DNA from: a virus | DNA: 13,289 bases | Virus record (IMG/VR): IMGVR_UViG_3300017989_002792 | Reading direction: 5' to 3' (one strand) | Shown: positions 193-3,930 of the stretch, in pieces | Numbering within the stretch: the first letter of the stretch is position 1 | Layout: each line of letters opens with the position of its first letter | Made by a program: the position numbers and the translations under genes | Notes under the pieces: model-generated | What the model was told of the DNA's origin: nothing | Seen by the model: only the letters and a program-made list of their open reading frames with translations | Databases searched by the model: none

Positions 193-264
193 AGGGGTGT
201 GGTGTAATGGTTAACATCTTCGGCTCCAACCCGAAGGCTCAGGGTTCGAATCCTTGCATCCCTG
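193..264 (+). tRNA. tRNA-Trp (anticodon CCA)
   Basis: Acceptor AGGGGTG/CATCCCT (one G-U). D-stem GTGT/ACAT. Anticodon stem TTCGG/CCGAA, loop CTCCAAC. T-arm CAGGG-TTCGAAT-CCTTG. Discriminator G. Confidence 0.8.
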
Positions 265-289
265 AATTAAAAAATAAAGGAGATAATAA

Positions 290-598
290 ATGAATCAACC
301 AAAACCACAACAAATAAGTGGAAATATGTTATTAAGTTCTTTTATGAGCGGAGTAATTAACAATATGGTAATAATGTCGTTCATAAAAAGCTTTACAAAA
401 GAAGAAGCTGAAAAAGTTCTTGATGAACTTTATAATGCGCAACTAGAAGTTTTTAAGAACACATGGGAGCCAATGTTAGCACAGGATATTGGTGGTTTAA
501 TTGAATTAAAAAAAGTTCTTAAAGAAGAATTTGACGGATTTAAAAAATCAATTTTAGAAAAGTATAAAAAAGATGGAGAGTTGGCAGAGTCTGGTTGA
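290..598 (+). CDS. hypothetical protein (102 aa)
   Basis: Strong RBS AAGGAGA 6 nt before ATG. Stop TGA 596-598 lies inside the 5' part of tRNA-Ser. Confidence 0.7.
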   Translation: MNQPKPQQISGNMLLSSFMSGVINNMVIMSFIKSFTKEEAEKVLDELYNAQLEVFKNTWEPMLAQDIGGLIELKKVLKEEFDGFKKSILEKYKKDGELAESG

Positions 599-665
599 TT
601 GCACTGCACTTGAAATGCAGAGGGCTATGTGAATAGTCCCAGGGGTTCGAATCCTCTACTCTCCT
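575..665 (+). tRNA. tRNA-Ser (anticodon TGA), class II with long variable arm
   Basis: Acceptor GGAGAGT/ACTCTCC. Anticodon stem CTGCA/TGCAG, loop CTTGAAA. Long variable arm AGGGCTATGTGAATAGTCC. T-arm CAGGGG-TTCGAAT-CCTC. Confidence 0.8.
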
Positions 666-751
666 AATAAAAATACACGACGAAGGTCAAAAAATATAAA
701 ATATCTACTATTTGTAAAACATGTTATAAAAGTAAGTATAGATAGATTTTA

Positions 752-826
752 GGCACCGTAGACCAATCAGGCAGAGTCAACGAGCTTAAACCTCGTTAAG
801 TAGCGGTTCGATTCCGCTCGGTGCTA
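752..826 (+). tRNA. tRNA with Leu anticodon TAA (reads UUA) but short 5-nt variable loop (class I-like)
   Basis: Acceptor GGCACCG/CGGTGCT (G1-U72). 3-bp D-stem GAC/GTC with long D-loop. Anticodon stem ACGAG/CTCGT, loop CTTAAAC. Variable TAAGT. T-arm AGCGG-TTCGATT-CCGCT. Discriminator A. Confidence 0.75.
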
Positions 827-840
827 ATAAAATAAAAAAA

Positions 841-913
841 GGCGCGATGACCTAATTGGCAAAGGTACATGATTCAAACTTATGGTTTATCGGTTCAAAT
901 CCGATTCGCGCTA
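841..913 (+). tRNA. tRNA with Leu anticodon CAA (reads UUG), short 4-nt variable loop
   Basis: Acceptor GGCGCGA/TCGCGCT. D-stem ACCT/AGGT. Anticodon stem CATGA/TTATG (one G-U), loop TTCAAAC. T-arm ATCGG-TTCAAAT-CCGAT. Discriminator A. Confidence 0.75.
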
Positions 914-935
914 ATTAAAACAAAGGAGATTTAAA

Positions 936-1292
936 GTGTTTACATTCTTAGTAATTTTAGGAATAATTAGTTTTTTAGTTATCGTTTTCACAGTACAATA
1001 CTACGAACCTTGGATTGATGGTGATGGACCTGTGTATGTGTTTTTAGTTTCATTAATCATACTAATTTTATCTATTGTTTCGGGAATCATAGGAACAAGA
1101 ACAGTTAAAACAAAATATGAAAAGGCTAAAATTACTCAAATAATCGAACATAAAGATACATTAGTAATTTTGCTCGAAGATGGAAAAATACTTACTAAAA
1201 AAGAATTAAAATGGAGAGACAAAAATAGAATTTTTAAGAAAATAGAAATCGATAGATTTGGTGATGAAGACGAAGAATATGTGGTAAAATAA
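936..1292 (+). CDS. hypothetical membrane protein (118 aa, two N-terminal TM helices), GTG start
   Basis: RBS AAAGGAGA 6 nt before GTG. N-terminus MFTFLVILGIISFLVIVF...VFLVSLIILILSIVSGIIG is strongly hydrophobic. Confidence 0.65.
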   Translation: MFTFLVILGIISFLVIVFTVQYYEPWIDGDGPVYVFLVSLIILILSIVSGIIGTRTVKTKYEKAKITQIIEHKDTLVILLEDGKILTKKELKWRDKNRIFKKIEIDRFGDEDEEYVVK

Positions 1293-1502
1293 ATGACATT
1301 ACTAATTTTAATAGCAATAATTATAAGTCCATTAATTTTAGCATTAATTATCAAATGGTATTTAAACTATAGATGGATGAAGAGATACATAAATGATATT
1401 GGTTATCGTTATGCATTAGAAGCTCGTGAGAGAGCAGAAAGATTAAAGAACATGAATTTGCAAGCGATGTATCTTGATAAAAAAGAAGGAAGAATAAATT
1501 GA
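1293..1502 (+). CDS. small single-pass membrane protein (69 aa)
   Basis: Start ATG overlaps the preceding stop (TAAATG). N-terminal TM LLILIAIIISPLILALII, then a charged C-terminus. Confidence 0.55.
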   Translation: MTLLILIAIIISPLILALIIKWYLNYRWMKRYINDIGYRYALEARERAERLKNMNLQAMYLDKKEGRIN

Positions 1503-1675
1503 GGTCCGATAAAATACTAAAATGTCCTAAATGTAATTCCATTGAAATTTCATATATATTTGTTATGGAACGAAAATATGATAATACAAATTATTATTGC
1601 AGAAATTGTAAATATAAATTTTATATAGAATGGAAAGGTAATAATTATAACGCCCTTGTAGACGAATTGGCCTAG
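1499..1675 (+). CDS. putative small zinc-ribbon protein (58 aa) with TTG start; absent from the ORF track
   Basis: AGGAAG RBS about 7 nt upstream of TTG 1499. Translation LRSDKILKCPKCNS...YYCRNCKYKFYIEWKG has CxxC...CxxC. Stop TAG 1673-1675 lies inside the downstream tRNA. Confidence 0.3.
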   Translation: MRSDKILKCPKCNSIEISYIFVMERKYDNTNYYCRNCKYKFYIEWKGNNYNALVDELA

Positions 1676-1730
1676 TCAACTGGCTTAGACCCAGTGCGTA
1701 AGCGTCCCGGTTCGAATCCGGGCGAGGGTA
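1652..1730 (+). tRNA. tRNA with Leu anticodon TAG (reads CUA), 10-nt variable region, 3-bp D-stem
   Basis: Acceptor GCCCTTG/CGAGGGT (two G-U). Anticodon stem ACTGG/CCAGT, loop CTTAGAC. T-arm CCCGG-TTCGAAT-CCGGG. Discriminator A. Confidence 0.75.
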
Positions 1731-1753
1731 TTTAAAAAAAGTAAATGAAAAAA

Positions 1754-1781
1754 TTGATTAACATGGAGGGTTTTGTATAGT
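1754..1781 (+). promoter_or_regulatory. sigma70-like promoter TTGATT-N16-TATAGT
   Basis: -35 TTGATT at 1754-1759, -10 TATAGT at 1776-1781, just upstream of RBS TAGGAGGT and ATG 1803. Confidence 0.4.
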
Positions 1782-1802
1782 AATACTTTAGGAGGTATTA
1801 CT

Positions 1803-2027
1803 ATGCGTTTATTAAACAAACCAAACCGTATTCTTAAAGAAACTACAAATAATAGAGAATATAAAATAGCGAAAGCAAATTTGGAACTATATAATATATG
1901 TCCTATATGTCCACCATATGGAGGGTGTAATTCACATAGGATTAAAATTAGAGATTATCGTTGTTGGAAACGATATAGAAAAACACAATATAAGCTGATG
2001 TCGCCTAACGGAAGGGCCTCGGAGTGA
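1803..2027 (+). CDS. small Cys-rich hypothetical protein (74 aa from ATG 1803; ORF track lists the 1773 start)
   Basis: RBS TAGGAGGT 8 nt before ATG 1803. Motif CPICPPYGGCNSH. Stop TGA 2025-2027 overlaps the anticodon loop of tRNA-Phe. Confidence 0.5.
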   Translation: MRLLNKPNRILKETTNNREYKIAKANLELYNICPICPPYGGCNSHRIKIRDYRCWKRYRKTQYKLMSPNGRASE

Positions 2028-2064
2028 AGATCCGATAGTGGTAGTTCGACTCTACTCGTCAGCA
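1994..2064 (+). tRNA. tRNA-Phe (anticodon GAA)
   Basis: Acceptor GCTGATG/CGTCAGC (one G-U). D-stem GCC/GGC. Anticodon stem TCGGA/TCCGA, loop GTGAAGA. T-arm GGTAG-TTCGACT-CTACT. Discriminator A. Confidence 0.7.
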
Positions 2065-2074
2065 ATTAAAACTT

Positions 2075-2296
2075 ATGTATAAACAATGTAAATTAAGAAA
2101 AGGAAAAGCAACCATAACTACTTGGGCACATGTAAATGTTGCAAAAAAAGGAAAACAAATTATGGTAAAAAGAGGTAATTTTTGGGAGTTTGATTGGATT
2201 ATTGAAGAAGTTTATCACGATATTGTAATAGATGAAGATAGGTTAGATGAATTAAAATCAGATCATAGAAATCAAAGAAAAGTAAGCGATGTTTAG
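2075..2296 (+). CDS. hypothetical protein (73 aa); alternative start ATG 2162 has a better RBS
   Basis: ORF MYKQCKLRKGKA... has no clear SD before 2075. AAAGGA sits 11 nt before ATG 2162 (MVKRGNFWEF...). Confidence 0.4.
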   Translation: MYKQCKLRKGKATITTWAHVNVAKKGKQIMVKRGNFWEFDWIIEEVYHDIVIDEDRLDELKSDHRNQRKVSDV

Positions 2297-2304
2297 GAAA
2301 AGAA

Positions 2305-2757
2305 ATGGAAAAACTAAAAGTTGTTAAAAAAATAAAATGGGATGAAGTAAAAAAGGCAATTCAAGAAAGCTCAAATGAAAGTTCTATCTATGTTGGTTGT
2401 GATAGTCAACACAGAAAAAAAAGTACACTTTTTGGACTAGTAGTTGTTATTCATATAGATAGTTCAAAGGGTGGAAGAGTATTTTATGAAATATCTAAGG
2501 CCAAAAGAATTAAGAGTCTTAGAGAGCGTCTTTTAAAAGAGGTTGAATTGGCTGTCACAGGAGCTCTCCAGATAGTGGAATCAGTTGGAAATAGACCTTT
2601 TGTTATTCACCTCGATATCAACCGGGATCCAGCGCATAAAAGTAGTGTGATTGTAAATGAAGCGATTGGATGGGTAACCGCGCAAAATCTGGAAGTTGCA
2701 GTAAAACCAGAGGCATGGGCAAGTGCACATGTGGCCGATCATATATGTAGGCTATAA
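2305..2757 (+). CDS. DUF458 / YkuK-like RNase H-fold protein (150 aa)
   Basis: Motifs IYVGCDSQ, LFGLVVVIHIDSSKGGRVFYE, LKEVELAVTGALQIVES, VIHLDINRD, KPEAWASAHVADHICR match the RNase H-like DUF458 family pattern (acidic residues on an RNase H fold). RBS AGGAAAAG precedes the start. Confidence 0.55.
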   Translation: MEKLKVVKKIKWDEVKKAIQESSNESSIYVGCDSQHRKKSTLFGLVVVIHIDSSKGGRVFYEISKAKRIKSLRERLLKEVELAVTGALQIVESVGNRPFVIHLDINRDPAHKSSVIVNEAIGWVTAQNLEVAVKPEAWASAHVADHICRL

Positions 2758-2827
2758 TTAATTATTAATTTCCTCTTAGGGACATCAAGTTATTTTATTC
2801 CAAAAATAAGGAAATTGTCTAAAAAAA

Positions 2828-3037
2828 ATGAAAAAAAAAGTTAAAAAGCAAAAATTAGAAATTTCATTAGAAGAGTTAAGAAGCATCATAGGAGAGATCG
2901 AAAGACGTTTAGATTGCGGATGGGATGATTGCTGGCCAACTTATGATGAAGAAAAAATTGAAATTACAATTTATGAGGATAAAGTAGACTTACGTATTCC
3001 ATATGAAGGTACTTCTTTTCAAACTTTTAATAGGTGA
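2828..3037 (+). CDS. hypothetical protein (69 aa)
   Basis: ORF with weak RBS. Stop overlaps the next gene's start (ATGA-type coupling at 3034-3037). Confidence 0.45.
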   Translation: MKKKVKKQKLEISLEELRSIIGEIERRLDCGWDDCWPTYDEEKIEITIYEDKVDLRIPYEGTSFQTFNR

Positions 3038-3537
3038 AAATGAAAAAAGAACTTGAAAAAAAATTAAGAACTAGATTTAAATTTTTTACAGTATCACCTG
3101 AAGTAGAAGATGGTTGGTTTGATTTATTATGGAACTTATGTTTTGAATTAGAATCGTGGTGTTTTGAAGGAGAGACAACTCAAGTTAAAGAGAAATTTGG
3201 TGGATTAAGATTTTATGTAACTTCTGCGGCCGATAGAGAGTATAGGATAATTCATGCGTATGAGGAGAAGTCATATACTATTTGTGAATTTTGTGGCGGA
3301 AAAGGAAAGCCAAGAGAAAAATTAGCATGGAGATTAACCTTATGTTTTAAATGTTATATCATAAAAAGAATTAAAATATTTTTTGACTTTATTACTTTTT
3401 CAGCATGGAGAGCAAAAAGAAGAATAAATCGTTTTATTAAAAGATATAAAATAAATAAAGAAATAAAGAAAGCAGAAAAATTAGGTGCTTATGACGCAGT
3501 CGAACATCAGACAAGCGAAAATAATTTTATGCCGTAG
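3034..3537 (+). CDS. hypothetical zinc-ribbon-containing protein (167 aa)
   Basis: RBS AGGTGA before ATG. Motif CEFCGGKGKPREKLAWRLTLCFKCY (CxxC...CxxC). Basic C-terminus. Stop TAG 3535-3537 falls in the acceptor stem of the downstream tRNA-like element. Confidence 0.6.
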   Translation: MKMKKELEKKLRTRFKFFTVSPEVEDGWFDLLWNLCFELESWCFEGETTQVKEKFGGLRFYVTSAADREYRIIHAYEEKSYTICEFCGGKGKPREKLAWRLTLCFKCYIIKRIKIFFDFITFSAWRAKRRINRFIKRYKINKEIKKAEKLGAYDAVEHQTSENNFMP

Positions 3538-3608
3538 TATCCACGCCCGCTACGAACGGGTAGTAAGGTAATTGGACGAAAATGCGGGTTCAAATCCTGC
3601 CTACGGCG
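3531..3608 (+). ncRNA. aberrant tRNA-like element / possible tRNA pseudogene (ACG-type anticodon hairpin, no canonical D-arm)
   Basis: Perfect 7-bp acceptor GCCGTAG/CTACGGC and canonical T-arm GCGGG-TTCAAAT-CCTGC. The interior folds only as hairpin GCCCG-CTACGAA-CGGGT, with a 7-nt 5' connector and a 22-nt 3' spacer. Confidence 0.4.
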
Positions 3609-3629
3609 AATCAATAAAGGAACAAAAAT

Positions 3630-3851
3630 ATGTGCAATTCAGACAGAAATTGTGAAAAGTGTAGAAATGGATATTATGTAGAATCAATAAAATTTCCTGA
3701 TGAATTAATTGAAATTTTAGGGGAATGGTATGAAAAATATAGGAATCAAGCAATTTTGAGAAGACTTAGACTCATCGTAGCTCAATCGGAAGACCGCGCG
3801 ATTACGAACCGTGATGTTGAGAGTTCAAATCCTTCCGATGGGAATGGATAG
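3630..3851 (+). CDS. small Cys-rich ORF (73 aa) whose 3' third is the tRNA-Arg sequence; only the N-terminal part is likely genuine coding
   Basis: RBS AAAGGA before ATG. N-terminus CNSDRNCEKCRNGYY (C-x5-C-x2-C). The ORF has no stop before reading through tRNA-Arg 3771-3843. Confidence 0.3.
   Translation: MCNSDRNCEKCRNGYYVESIKFPDELIEILGEWYEKYRNQAILRRLRLIVAQSEDRAITNRDVESSNPSDGNG
3771..3843 (+). tRNA. tRNA-Arg (anticodon ACG)
   Basis: Acceptor CTCATCG/CGATGGG (one U-G). D-arm GCTC-AATCGGAA-GACC (one mismatch). Anticodon stem CGCGA/CCGTG, loop TTACGAA. T-arm GAGAG-TTCAAAT-CCTTC. Discriminator A. Confidence 0.65.
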
Positions 3852-3930
3852 TTGCTCGAGTGGAAAGAGACCAGTCTGCTACACTGAGGTCGGGTATAGC
3901 CCGCATAGGTTCAAATCCTATACTGTCCGA
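3846..3930 (+). tRNA. tRNA-Ser (anticodon GCT), class II
   Basis: Acceptor GGATAGT/ACTGTCC (one U-G). 3-bp D-stem. Anticodon stem CCAGT/ACTG(A), loop CTGCTAC. Long variable arm with hairpin CGGG-TATAG-CCCG. T-arm ATAGG-TTCAAAT-CCTAT. Discriminator G. Starts 2 nt after tRNA-Arg. Confidence 0.7.

Follow-up and report, generated by a model that had tools for sequence, protein, structure and literature searches.

Compact leucine tRNA genes with reduced variable arms in the tRNA cluster of a low-GC phage

In Escherichia coli the determinants of leucine identity are the discriminator A73 and a set of core features (U8:A14, A15:U48, the placement of G18G19, A20a and the T-loop pair U54:A58), while the variable arm is dispensable (PMC9976931). 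Engineered E. coli tRNALeu from which the arm has been removed is, in the account that PMC9976931 gives of Larkin et al. (2002), aminoacylated and edited by bacterial LeuRS, its charging requiring A73 and the tertiary contacts of the D and T loops. A bacterial tRNALeu with a 5-nt variable loop is leucylated by the LeuRS of Streptomyces coelicolor and by the human mitochondrial enzyme; E. coli LeuRS fails to charge the S. coelicolor short-loop tRNALeu(CAA) (PMC6614811), so tolerance is not universal among bacterial LeuRS and charging elsewhere is not to be assumed. Textbooks and one experimental paper describe short-loop tRNALeu as a bacterial rarity. Within the literature searched, the phrase "type I tRNALeu" is used by the Streptomyces study only, and no paper on short-arm tRNALeu in phages was found.

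The genes described here lie in a 13,289-nt stretch of viral DNA (IMG/VR record IMGVR_UViG_3300017989_002792; the whole stretch is referred to as the window). They belong to a phage tRNA cluster on the + strand, delineated at 193-3930 by ARAGORN, Rfam and the list of open reading frames. Its other members are tRNATrp(CCA) (193-264), tRNASer(UGA) (575-665; 91 nt, with a 20-nt arm), tRNAPhe(GAA) (1994-2064), a degenerate tRNA-like element (3531-3608), tRNAArg(ACG) (3771-3843; a poor 36.6 bits on the Rfam model) and tRNASer(GCU) (3846-3929; 86 nt, with a 17-nt arm). Small open reading frames with Shine-Dalgarno sites lie between the tRNAs of the cluster. Both tRNASer genes keep long arms: the shortening of the variable arm is therefore specific to leucine.

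ARAGORN places tRNALeu(UAA) at 752-826 (75 nt), tRNALeu(CAA) at 841-913 (73 nt) and tRNALeu(UAG) at 1652-1730 (79 nt), exactly where, and exactly as long as, a prior sequence-only reading of this DNA had them. The program draws a cloverleaf for each, and the Rfam tRNA model (RF00005, gathering score 29 bits) scores them at 53.0, 57.7 and 50.0 bits respectively, the last figure coming from a local search (a whole-window run with speed filters missed this gene); these scores equal or exceed those of the window's other tRNAs. The brackets of ARAGORN and the Rfam alignments agree on the variable regions, and on the sizes that had been read from the letters: UAAGU (5 nt) for tRNALeu(UAA), GUUU (4 nt) for tRNALeu(CAA) and GCGUAAGCGU (10 nt) for tRNALeu(UAG). 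None is the stem-loop of more than 10 nt that makes a class II arm. Neither ARAGORN nor the Rfam alignments contain a hidden long arm in any of the three genes, and total lengths of 75, 73 and 79 nt leave no space for one to have been overlooked; folding on the Rfam covariance model, to which the sequence-only reading had in advance submitted its parse, thus uncovers no normal long arm.

The three genes (all + strand) can be read off position by position. In tRNALeu(UAA) the acceptor stem (752-758 paired with 819-825) opens with G1.U72; U8 and A9 (759-760) lead into a D arm at 761-778, GAC-C-AAUCAGGCAG-A-GUC, which has a 3-bp stem and a C13.A22 mismatch; A26 (779) is followed by the anticodon arm (780-796, loop CUUAAAC, anticodon at 787-789), the variable loop (797-801), the T arm (802-818) and A73 at 826. 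The acceptor stem of tRNALeu(CAA) (841-847 with 906-912) likewise opens with G1.U72 and is followed by U8 G9; its D arm (850-866), ACCU-AAUUGGCAA-AGGU, differs in having a 4-bp stem that includes U13-A22; the anticodon (875-877) sits in the loop UUCAAAC, the variable loop occupies 885-888, the T arm 889-905, and A73 is at 913. In tRNALeu(UAG) the acceptor (1652-1658 with 1723-1729) again has G1.U72, followed by U8 A9; the D arm at 1661-1677 is GAC-G-AAUUGGCCU-A-GUC, with a 3-bp stem and G13.A22; the loop CUUAGAC presents the anticodon at 1686-1688; and the variable region at 1696-1705 precedes the T arm (1706-1722) and A73 at 1730. The length of 10 nt that had been read for that variable region stands, but the region is no plain loop: its first eight nucleotides can pair into a 2-bp stem with a GNRA tetraloop on top (GC-GUAA-GC, followed by G47 U48), and it is accordingly a miniature arm rather than a class I loop. 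The minimum-free-energy fold of the naked tRNALeu(UAG) sequence is not a cloverleaf, to which little weight is attached, since folding a single unmodified tRNA often misses the cloverleaf.

Common to the three, when the ARAGORN structures are parsed, are G1.U72, C3-G70 and the combination of A14 and A15 with U48; the discriminator is A73 throughout, and two of the three D stems are of 3 bp, both as first read. The positions that hardly vary among tRNAs are kept (U8, A14, G18G19, U33, G53, U54U55C56, A58, C61); each 7-nt anticodon loop has U33 and a leucine anticodon (of the form NAG or YAA); the stems are intact, with irregularities limited to G.U pairs and to the 13:22 mismatch typical of the short-Leu family; CCA is not encoded. 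By sequence, all core determinants of the E. coli type are present in tRNALeu(UAA) and tRNALeu(CAA), while tRNALeu(UAG) has C instead of A at position 20a; one of these determinants, A15:U48, was tried and rejected as a discriminator within the window, where the Trp, Phe and Arg tRNAs carry it too. All three also have C38. The A36A37A38 motif is used by MiaA and TrmL; C38 breaks it, and the modification state of the window tRNAs would consequently differ from that of canonical tRNALeu(UAA/CAA).

Do the bodies of these tRNAs look like those of leucine tRNAs when anticodon and variable region are disregarded? A naive-Bayes classifier that excludes both places all three with an independent set of short-arm Leu tRNAs as the best class, with 11 of 1438 non-Leu tRNAs falsely called the same; it mislabels the window's own Phe and Arg tRNAs, and is for that reason a weak instrument for so divergent a phage. 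Its margins are 14-16 nats for tRNALeu(UAG), 5.5-8.9 nats for tRNALeu(UAA) and only 1.6-1.9 nats above Met for tRNALeu(CAA). Nine of the ten nearest neighbours of tRNALeu(UAA) are Leu; for tRNALeu(CAA) the count is 7 of 10 in a first panel, with Glu at the top, and 6 of 12 in a larger one, with Gln at the top. A covariance model of short-arm Leu (R1) gives 75.1 bits to tRNALeu(UAA) and 58.7 bits to each of the other two, against 41-45 bits (maximum 44.7) for the window's Trp, Phe and Arg tRNAs. Panel matches above 73 bits, the range of tRNALeu(UAA), are all Leu; in the band from 58 to 72 bits tRNAs for Lys, Met, Thr, Ile and Arg turn up as well, so 58.7 bits is not decisive by itself, and the raw score was set aside as sole proof for tRNALeu(CAA) and tRNALeu(UAG).

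Other candidate marks were discarded. G1.U72 is common among viral tRNAs for Ile, Val and Glu, and a classifier in which long-arm Leu was the sole leucine class put Met and Glu slightly ahead but misassigned the window's Trp, Phe and Arg tRNAs and was thus uninformative for so divergent a phage. By architecture, the 3-bp D stem with a non-Watson-Crick 13:22 is found in tRNALeu(UAA) and tRNALeu(UAG), not in tRNALeu(CAA); a loop of about 5 nt (4-8) is found in tRNALeu(UAA) and tRNALeu(CAA), and the 10-nt region of tRNALeu(UAG) goes with a group of 9-12-nt miniature arms. The blastn match of tRNALeu(UAA) is the tRNALeu(TAA) of Ochrobactrum phage vB_OspM_OC, the 5' half of tRNALeu(UAG) matches the 74-nt tRNALeu(TAG) of Cellulophaga phage phi19:1, and the bodies of tRNALeu(UAG) and tRNALeu(UAA) are 70% identical.

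How widespread the compact form is can be gauged from three arbitrary 120-locus samples of IMG/VR. Among viral tRNALeu(UAA) genes, 24 of 102 (24%) are of 75 nt or less (24% is also quoted at 78 nt or less); 17 of 41 tRNALeu(CAA) genes (41%) and 25 of 59 tRNALeu(UAG) genes (42%) are of 78 nt or less, a further 6 and 11, respectively, measuring 79-81 nt. Miniature arms of 9-12 nt like that of the window's tRNALeu(UAG) account for another 14-19%; closely similar ones (UGC-GAAA-GCGU, UGC-GCAA-GCGU) occur in other viral tRNALeu(UAG) genes. In the contigs of the first viral sample a short variable region is found in 50 of 144 tRNALeu, 1 of 15 tRNATyr and 0 of 39 tRNASer. Bacteria have the form too: 12 of 101 sampled tRNALeu(UAA) genes have a 5-nt loop, mostly chromosomal genes of Actinomycetota. 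Loops of 8 nt or less make up 35% of viral against 15% of bacterial Leu tRNAs, and variable regions of 9-12 nt were seen in 34 distinct viral cases but in none of the 107 Leu tRNAs from bacteria; the tetraloop-capped miniature arm was found, in the samples taken, in viral contigs only.

The family is coherent. Among 123 distinct short Leu tRNAs, A73 is universal (as it is among the 94 long viral Leu genes examined), the 13:22 combination is non-Watson-Crick in 122, and 117 have A15:U48, with G15:C48 in 4. In an alignment of the first 66 of them (A1), 97.9% of cells pair, 459 cells are changed on both sides, and the observed covariation values were reached in 0 of 500 shuffles. The short trio of UAA, CAA and UAG anticodons recurs in other viral contigs (L094, L134 and L147, for example), and short and long Leu genes stand side by side in 15 viral loci. 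Matches in cultured phages amount to 61 records; among the matches listed, most are annotated tRNALeu of 73-77 nt. On this comparison of sequences the three window genes belong to a widespread tRNALeu lineage with a reduced class II arm. For tRNALeu(CAA) the membership is weak: it is an outlier, a Watson-Crick U13-A22 and a 4-nt loop each occurring once among the 123, and its assignment is the least secure of the three. The feature had been taken for something unusual; with the compact form common in phages and present in bacteria, that view is not upheld.

No close relative of the phage came to light in the collections searched. Megablast with all 13,289 nt against 50,697 phage records gave no match; degenerate patterns drawn from tRNALeu(UAG) and tRNALeu(UAA) retrieved the Cellulophaga phage only, or nothing, in IMG/VR; and a neighbouring RNaseH-like gene has no IMG/VR relative. 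Relatives of a 931-aa protein are only ~40% identical, and their loci have no tRNAs or an ordinary 86-nt tRNALeu. Since the only protein relatives lie in viral contigs of 190-570 kb, the phage is probably large. A scan for promoters and terminators did no better than on shuffled sequence. The description of an AT-rich, UUA-heavy genome holds up in the window, where GC is 30% and TTA is the most used leucine codon (124 of 253, or 49%). In alignments with homologues, the columns are 41% leucine at TTA, 58% at TTG and 62% at CTA, against 52% at the control codon CTT, on few columns (20, 7 and 7) and by a comparison that is blind to low-level mischarging; these alignments contain no sign of reassignment at TTA, TTG or CTA, and as far as homologous sequence can tell, the three codons stand for leucine.

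Most probably, then, these are three working leucine isoacceptors for UUA, UUG and CUA, serving a low-GC (30%) phage and receiving their leucine from a LeuRS to which the variable arm is of no consequence. The sequence-only reading had offered functional minimalist leucine tRNAs as its favoured interpretation, and the identity elements, the classification, the share of TTA and the codon columns all lend support to it. The class II arm would have been reduced to a 4-5-nt loop in two genes and to a 2-bp stem with a tetraloop in the third, the rest of the leucine architecture being apparently retained. All three keep A73, U8:A14, A15:U48 (the Levitt pair) and a Leu-type D loop containing G18G19; two also keep a 3-bp D stem mismatched at 13:22. 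Bacterial LeuRS reads A73 and the tertiary core, and neither the anticodon nor (in the E. coli case) the sequence and fold of the arm, so that the arm can go without loss of leucine identity; tRNASer keeps its arm because SerRS needs it. Transcription would be followed by processing by RNases P and Z and by CCA addition; leucylation would fall to the host LeuRS, or to a phage LeuRS if one is encoded in the unseen part of the genome; and the charged tRNAs would supply the phage's leucine codons, chiefly UUA, presumably to its benefit.

The loss of the class II arm gives these tRNAs the look of class I, and it had accordingly been suggested as an alternative that they are isotype-switched: a non-leucyl synthetase would charge the body and place another amino acid at UUA, UUG or CUA. 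The long-arm-only classifier, with Met and Glu slightly above Leu, leans that way, and so does tRNALeu(CAA), whose anticodon is one base from CAU (Met or Ile2) and whose runner-up class is Met. Yet the synthetases of the other A73 isotypes require anticodon bases that are absent here (those for Met, Ile, Val, Lys, Phe, Arg, Tyr, Pro and Thr are anticodon-dependent); C3-G70 stands where alanine identity would call for G3:U70, the long arm of Ser is missing, position 73 is never G, U or C, and once a short-arm Leu class is offered to the classifier, each of the three falls into it and into no other isotype. The homologue columns at the three codons are mainly leucine, the same short trio recurs in other contigs, and with TTA the commonest leucine codon, mistranslation would affect every protein: a switch of identity is very improbable. 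Scarcely any likelier is the proposition that these are decaying or non-translational tRNA-like genes (pseudogenes, remnants of integration sites or processing signals) with a residual cloverleaf. At least one degenerate tRNA-like element and a low-scoring tRNAArg do lie in the same window, and the Leu genes are identical in sequence in the other assemblies of this phage (L001-L004), which leaves no variation for testing selection; but intact stems, the presence of invariant positions and 50-58 bits on the Rfam model speak against decay, as does the strong compensatory change across the wider short-Leu family, which implies selection for structure.

Which bacterial LeuRS accept compact leucine tRNAs, and why do phages favour them? 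One suggestion, compatible with functional leucine tRNAs and adding a selective reason for their form, is that the shortened arm and C38 are adaptations by which phage tRNAs continue to decode leucine while escaping something that recognizes host tRNALeu: a tRNA-targeting defence nuclease or toxin of the host, or the phage's own attack on host tRNAs. The viral excess of 9-12-nt forms and of loops of 8 nt or less fits, and so does the sharing of the unusual C38 by all three window tRNAs; cultured phages of Prochlorococcus, Pseudomonas, Vibrio and Lactobacillus carry short tRNALeu, the tRNALeu of these hosts being long-armed; the short tRNALeu of Prochlorococcus phage P-SSM7 adjoins a tRNA ligase gene; and changes in the loop have been reported to let phage T5 tRNAs escape anticodon nucleases. 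Against this, no nuclease that uses the leucine variable arm as a handle was found, nor does any gene for defence or counter-defence in the window hint at one; deletion bias, a streamlining of genomes or the spread of a single compact lineage could account just as well for the excess in phages; the same short form is chromosomal in Actinomycetota, where such an explanation is needless; and short and long Leu genes coexist in those 15 viral loci. Adaptive escape is unlikely. Its more general form, in which arm shortening, to a compact or a tetraloop-capped form, is a widespread phage-specific counter-measure that leaves a tRNA chargeable by host LeuRS and invisible either to an enzyme of the host that recognizes class II tRNALeu or to one of the phage that destroys the host's class II tRNALeu, is to be regarded with the same scepticism. 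Were it true, the phage would own a private leucine-decoding pool, and the LeuRS of Pseudomonas, Vibrio, Prochlorococcus and Lactobacillus, which do not encounter a short tRNALeu among those of their own cells, would have to accept one all the same, unlike E. coli LeuRS confronted with the Streptomyces tRNA.

With functional leucine tRNAs as the preferred interpretation, the window genes can be annotated as tRNALeu with reasonable confidence, and neither recoding nor mistranslation need be invoked. The compact leucine tRNA is a fairly ordinary form, common in phage genomes and found in some bacteria (24-42% of phage tRNALeu genes and ~12% of bacterial tRNALeu(UAA), as sampled), of which the window genes are further examples. 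Compact leucine tRNAs that LeuRS accepts whatever the anticodon could interest tRNA engineers.

Among described systems, the type I tRNALeu(CAA) of S. coelicolor (Fan et al., Nucleic Acids Res 2019, PMC6614811) is alike in being of bacterial type, with a 5-nt loop and A73; it shares its cytoplasm with class II tRNAs and is a proven substrate of a bacterial LeuRS. The loop sequence, A44-C45-A46-G47-C48, fits an NNAGY pattern, as do the UAAGU of the window's tRNALeu(UAA) and the loops of many genes gathered from phages and actinobacteria. The Streptomyces gene is, however, the one short isoacceptor on the chromosome of a high-GC actinomycete, whereas the window has three in a phage of 30% GC. 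Each of these carries G1.U72 and C38; the loop of one is 4 nt long, and another has a miniature arm of 10 nt. Short tRNALeu genes of cultured phages have the same compact architecture, sequence similarity without a gap at the variable region, and the same setting within tRNA clusters, with only ~80-89% identity to the window genes over 35-44 nt. Prochlorococcus phage P-SSM7 has a 73-nt tRNALeu annotated "codon recognized: UUA"; Ochrobactrum phage vB_OspM_OC has one of 75 nt plus CCA, as well as an 80-nt miniature-arm TAG gene; the gene of Cellulophaga phage phi19:1 agrees with the window's tRNALeu(UAG) in G1.U72, A73, the D arm and the loop CUUAGAC; Pseudomonas phage ZC03 has a 77-nt short tRNALeu beside an 84-nt Leu gene; and short annotated tRNALeu occur also in Streptomyces, Lactobacillus, Vibrio and Rhodococcus phages. 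As far as the literature searches reached, no biochemical study of these cultured-phage genes was found.

Canonical class II tRNALeu (that of E. coli, for example) shares with the window genes the anticodons, A73, U8:A14, A15:U48 and G18G19 in an AAUUGG-type D loop, and its 3-bp D stem with R13.A22 is matched in tRNALeu(UAG); it differs in its arm of 13-19 nt with a 4-6-bp stem, in G9 and in A36A37A38, where the window genes have variable regions of 5, 4 and 10 nt, A9 in two and C38 in three. Animal mitochondrial tRNALeu(UUR/CUN) resembles them in its short variable loop, in an identity conferred by A73 and A14 and in being served by a LeuRS of bacterial descent. It is organellar, with a relaxed, floppy structure and a dedicated mitochondrial LeuRS, while the elbow of the window genes is canonical throughout (G18G19 and the T loop UUCRAWU). 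The armless E. coli tRNALeu are laboratory constructs; the window tRNAs are natural genes.

Of the eight tRNA genes that ARAGORN calls in the window, all on the + strand, three have leucine anticodons. These are a 75-nt tRNA-Leu(taa) at 752-826, a 73-nt tRNA-Leu(caa) at 841-913 and a 79-nt tRNA-Leu(tag) at 1652-1730; the Rfam tRNA model, whose gathering score is 29 bits, gives them 53.0, 57.7 and 50.0 bits, respectively. (A technical note: the Leu-tag match is lost to speed filters in the window-wide run and regained in a search limited to 1600-1780.) The variable regions read UAAGU in Leu-taa, GUUU in Leu-caa and GCGUAAGCGU in Leu-tag, both in the Rfam alignments and in the ARAGORN bracket strings. 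The gene lengths and the variable regions of 5, 4 and 10 nt thus stand as the sequence-only reading had given them. In Leu-tag these 10 nt (GC-GUAA-GC-GU) can fold into a stem of 2 bp with a GNRA tetraloop on top, a miniature arm and not a loop. A long arm overlooked by eye, which that reading had named as the first finding that would tell against it, was looked for in the covariance-model alignments and is absent: a total length of 73-79 nt leaves no room for it. The three genes have A73 in common, as had been noted, and also G1·U72, C3-G70 and A14 A15 ... U48; the 3-bp D stem ascribed to two of them is seen in Leu-taa and Leu-tag, together with a 13:22 mismatch, while Leu-caa has U13-A22. 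In the panel of viral loci L042-L161 the G1·U72 wobble, at the top of the acceptor stem, is frequent in several isotypes with A73 (Leu, 31/94 and 25/50; Ile, 15/28; Val, 13/23; Glu, 17/27), while Thr, Pro, Ala, Asn, Asp, His and Phe tRNAs show it rarely or never.

All three anticodon loops have C38 (CUUAAAC, 785-791; UUCAAAC, 873-879; CUUAGAC, 1684-1690), a position occupied by A in most Leu tRNAs of the panel. Canonical tRNALeu(UAA/CAA) carries the A36A37A38 motif, which MiaA and TrmL need (PMC9976931), whereas C38 breaks it in the UAA and CAA genes of the window. Judged by this loss of the motif, anticodon-loop modification probably differs from that of the canonical tRNAs.

How common are such genes? 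A blastn search with the three genes finds few matches among cultured phages, every one annotated tRNA-Leu: Leu-taa matches tRNA-Leu(TAA) of Ochrobactrum phage vB_OspM_OC (75 nt plus CCA, loop AAAGU), and Leu-tag matches the 74-nt tRNA-Leu(TAG) of Cellulophaga phage phi19:1, with which it shares G1·U72, A73 and the CUUAGAC loop. A representative of the short-arm family matches 61 cultured-phage records, with most of the matches listed annotated tRNA-Leu and hosts that include cyanobacteria, Streptomyces, Lactobacillus, Pseudomonas, Vibrio, Rhodococcus, Acinetobacter and Bacillus. Prochlorococcus phage P-SSM7 has a 73-nt tRNA-Leu (L503 302-374) annotated "codon recognized: UUA"; the gene immediately downstream (L503 431-673) is annotated as a tRNA ligase, a hint that phage tRNA genes and tRNA repair may be connected. 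Pseudomonas phage ZC03 combines a 77-nt and an 84-nt tRNA-Leu in one cluster. An Erwinia phage Hena1 gene annotated tRNA-Arg is 79% identical to the short-Leu query over 66 nt.

IMG/VR was sampled with a pattern that fixes the anticodon and T loops and leaves the variable length free between 4 and 23 nt. Among the first 120 loci matched, 24 of 102 tRNA-Leu(taa) are no longer than 75 nt; the same design yields 17 of 41 distinct tRNA-Leu(caa) and 25 of 59 distinct tRNA-Leu(tag) of at most 78 nt, with a further 6 and 11, respectively, at 79-81 nt. (These samples, like the bacterial one below, are the first matches of each scan and not random draws; percentages are therefore rough.) In the parsed panel of the first viral sample a variable region of 8 nt or less occurs in 50/144 tRNA-Leu, as against 0/39 tRNA-Ser and 1/15 tRNA-Tyr, so that shortening of the variable arm in viral contigs is both common and Leu-specific. 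Another 19/144 tRNA-Leu have 9-12 nt. In this "mini-arm" class the stem has 2-3 bp and often ends in a GNRA or UNCG tetraloop (UGC-GAAA-GCGU, CGC-UUCG-GCGU, UC-UUCG-GA); viral loci L436, L410, L115, L444 and L013 (2410-2492) provide examples, as does the window at 1696-1705.

The same pattern, applied to bacteria with one genome per species, finds a 5-nt loop in 12/101 tRNA-Leu(taa). The titled matches are mostly Actinomycetota (Nocardioides, Gordonia, Arcanobacterium, Herbiconiux, Microbacterium), and a short tRNA-Leu(UAA) beginning GCCCCCGUAGCCCAAUYGGCAGAGGC, with a 5-nt loop NNAGU, is conserved in chromosomal contigs of several genera of that phylum (loci L170, L172, L175, L188, L204, L217 and L232). 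A Planctomycetota genome has a tandem short Leu trio (cag, taa, gag; L195 3550-3794), and a bacterial-genome contig packs 29 tRNA genes into 2.9 kb (L248 81-2905), four of them Leu genes whose variable regions are short; the window's tRNA-Trp finds its nearest neighbour in the tRNA-Trp of this contig (78% over compared positions). The mini arm is another matter: 34 distinct examples come from viral contigs, as against none among the 107 Leu tRNAs of the bacterial-genome sample. Among published short bacterial tRNA-Leu, the literature covered gives only the Streptomyces tRNALeu(CAA).

The short-arm genes are a coherent family. In a panel of 123 distinct short Leu tRNAs, from which the window genes were left out, A73 is universal (123/123), 13:22 is non-Watson-Crick in 122, 15:48 is A:U in 117 and G:C in 4, and the loop is 5 nt long in 112; a 13:22 mismatch is uncommon among class I isotypes. 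The first 66 collected were aligned with their anticodons masked: 97.9% of cells fit the pairing of a cloverleaf whose D stem has 3 bp, and both partners change in 459 cells. None of 500 shuffles reaches the observed values, and sliding the partners by 1-3 columns abolishes the signal. The 15:48 tertiary pair itself alternates (A:U, 60; G:C, 4; C:G, 1).

Do the window genes belong? A naive-Bayes classifier was given 63 features (60 canonical positions and three D-loop length measures), with anticodon and variable region left out; its leave-one-out accuracy is 80-81%. When a short-arm Leu class is included, all three genes are assigned to it, by margins of 5.5-8.9 (taa), 1.6-1.9 (caa) and 14-16 (tag) nats; only 11/1438 non-Leu tRNAs are so assigned. 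With a covariance model made from the alignment of 66 sequences, Leu-taa scores 75.1 bits and Leu-caa and Leu-tag 58.7 bits each, the window's Arg, Phe and Trp tRNAs reaching 44.7, 43.2 and 41.5 bits. In a panel of 40 viral loci every match above 73 bits is Leu, while the 58-72 bit range also holds Lys, Met, Thr, Ile and Arg tRNAs, so that Leu-taa is the one gene that the model settles. Leu tRNAs make up 9, 7 and 7 of the ten nearest neighbours of taa, tag and caa, respectively, and identity between the taa and tag bodies is 70%, where unrelated pairs have about 45%. Leu-taa and Leu-tag can be counted as members with confidence; Leu-caa, atypical in its U13-A22 and 4-nt loop, is a probable member only. 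Five short Leu genes (taa, tag, cag, gag, caa) lie together in viral contig L081; another gene there (2115-2189), called tRNA-Gln(ttg), has a body far closer to short-arm Leu (+17 nats) but U73.

The window (GC, 30%) is a fragment of an uncultured phage, probably a large one. Shine-Dalgarno sites precede its ORFs; among the products are accessory proteins of phage type, namely a Nol-like carbamoyltransferase, a metallophosphoesterase, an RNaseH-like protein, a UDG-family protein and a protein of 931 aa. The last (4162-6957, +) has a Major Vault Protein shoulder domain (PF11978, E = 1.9e-23), a weak Vault_3 repeat and no PHROG match; it recurs identically on four metagenomic contigs, the longest essentially the window, and viral contigs of 190-570 kb, one of them recovered from the human gut, carry its relatives at ~40% identity, hence the probable large size. 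The cultured-phage collection holds no DNA-level relative of the window. Both tRNA-Ser genes of the cluster keep normal arms (20 and 17 nt); tRNA-Ser(UGA) (575-665) has U73 in place of the usual G73. Just 1-2 nt lie between tRNA-Ser(GCU) (3845-3930) and tRNA-Arg(ACG) (3771-3843), a poor tRNA (36.6 bits; C1-G72; mismatches in D, anticodon and T stems). A ninth tRNA-like element (3531-3608, +), absent from the ARAGORN calls and the window-wide Rfam run, scores 30.0 bits in a local Rfam tRNA search and 24.4 bits with the short-arm-Leu model. Its acceptor stem is 7 bp long (GCCGUAG/CUACGGC), its T arm is good, and ACG stands in the 7-nt loop of a further stem-loop; the D arm is missing from its usual place, UCCA after U8 A9 pairing instead with a UGGA that follows the anticodon arm on the 3' side and adjoins a D-loop-like AAUUGG (minimum-free-energy fold, -29.5 kcal/mol; z = -2.75). 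A rearranged tRNA-Arg pseudogene and a tRNA-like RNA are both possible identities.

What do these anticodons mean to the phage? The genome is UUA-heavy and AT-rich, as had been remarked: TTA accounts for 124 of the 253 Leu codons in 16 window ORFs, ahead of CTT (72), TTG (25) and CTA (23). When three window proteins are aligned to homologues in the collected loci, Leu is the leading conserved residue under TTA, TTG and CTA, averaging 41%, 58% and 62% over 20, 7 and 7 columns (small numbers); control CTT columns are 52% Leu, and other codons behave similarly for their own amino acids. No codon reassignment is seen at TTA, TTG or CTA in these columns, which make wholesale mischarging implausible. 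The suggestion that these are isotype-switched tRNAs that mistranslate thus runs against identity elements, classification and codon test alike, and we consider it highly improbable. We give equally little credence to their being pseudogenes: stems are intact, invariant positions are kept, model scores are good and the family covaries.

The functional option of the sequence-only reading fares better, and we hold it to be likely: A73 is present and the best class is short-arm Leu, narrowly so for Leu-caa. The genes would then be leucine tRNAs with a dispensable arm trimmed, predicted to be processed, provided with CCA and charged by LeuRS of the host, or of the phage should it encode one, to feed UUA-rich phage messages. 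Does arm loss itself serve a purpose, such as evading a nuclease or toxin that targets tRNAs? The enrichment of short forms in viruses, the virus-only mini arm, the tRNA ligase beside the P-SSM7 gene and the shared C38 are all compatible with that proposal, but the chromosomal actinobacterial genes do not need it, and it strikes us as unlikely.

Precedents for charging exist. Leu identity in E. coli resides in A73, the A15-U48 pair, G18G19, A20a and D/T-loop contacts; neither the anticodon nor the long arm, whether by sequence or by fold, matters to it, and constructs without the arm stay active, while arm size is the main determinant for SerRS (PMC9976931). The natural S. coelicolor tRNALeu(CAA), with its 5-nt loop, is charged by its own single LeuRS and by human mitochondrial LeuRS; E. 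coli LeuRS fails to charge it, and the ability maps to the leucine-specific domain of LeuRS (PMC6614811). Short-loop tRNALeu has been called rare in prokaryotes (PMC6614811); its abundance in phages may be under-appreciated, and against the comparative data the window genes are unsurprising. Compact tRNA-Leu is already known, and these genes add members: their closest sequence relatives are cultured-phage genes annotated tRNA-Leu, and their closest experimentally characterised relative is the short-loop tRNALeu(CAA) of S. coelicolor.
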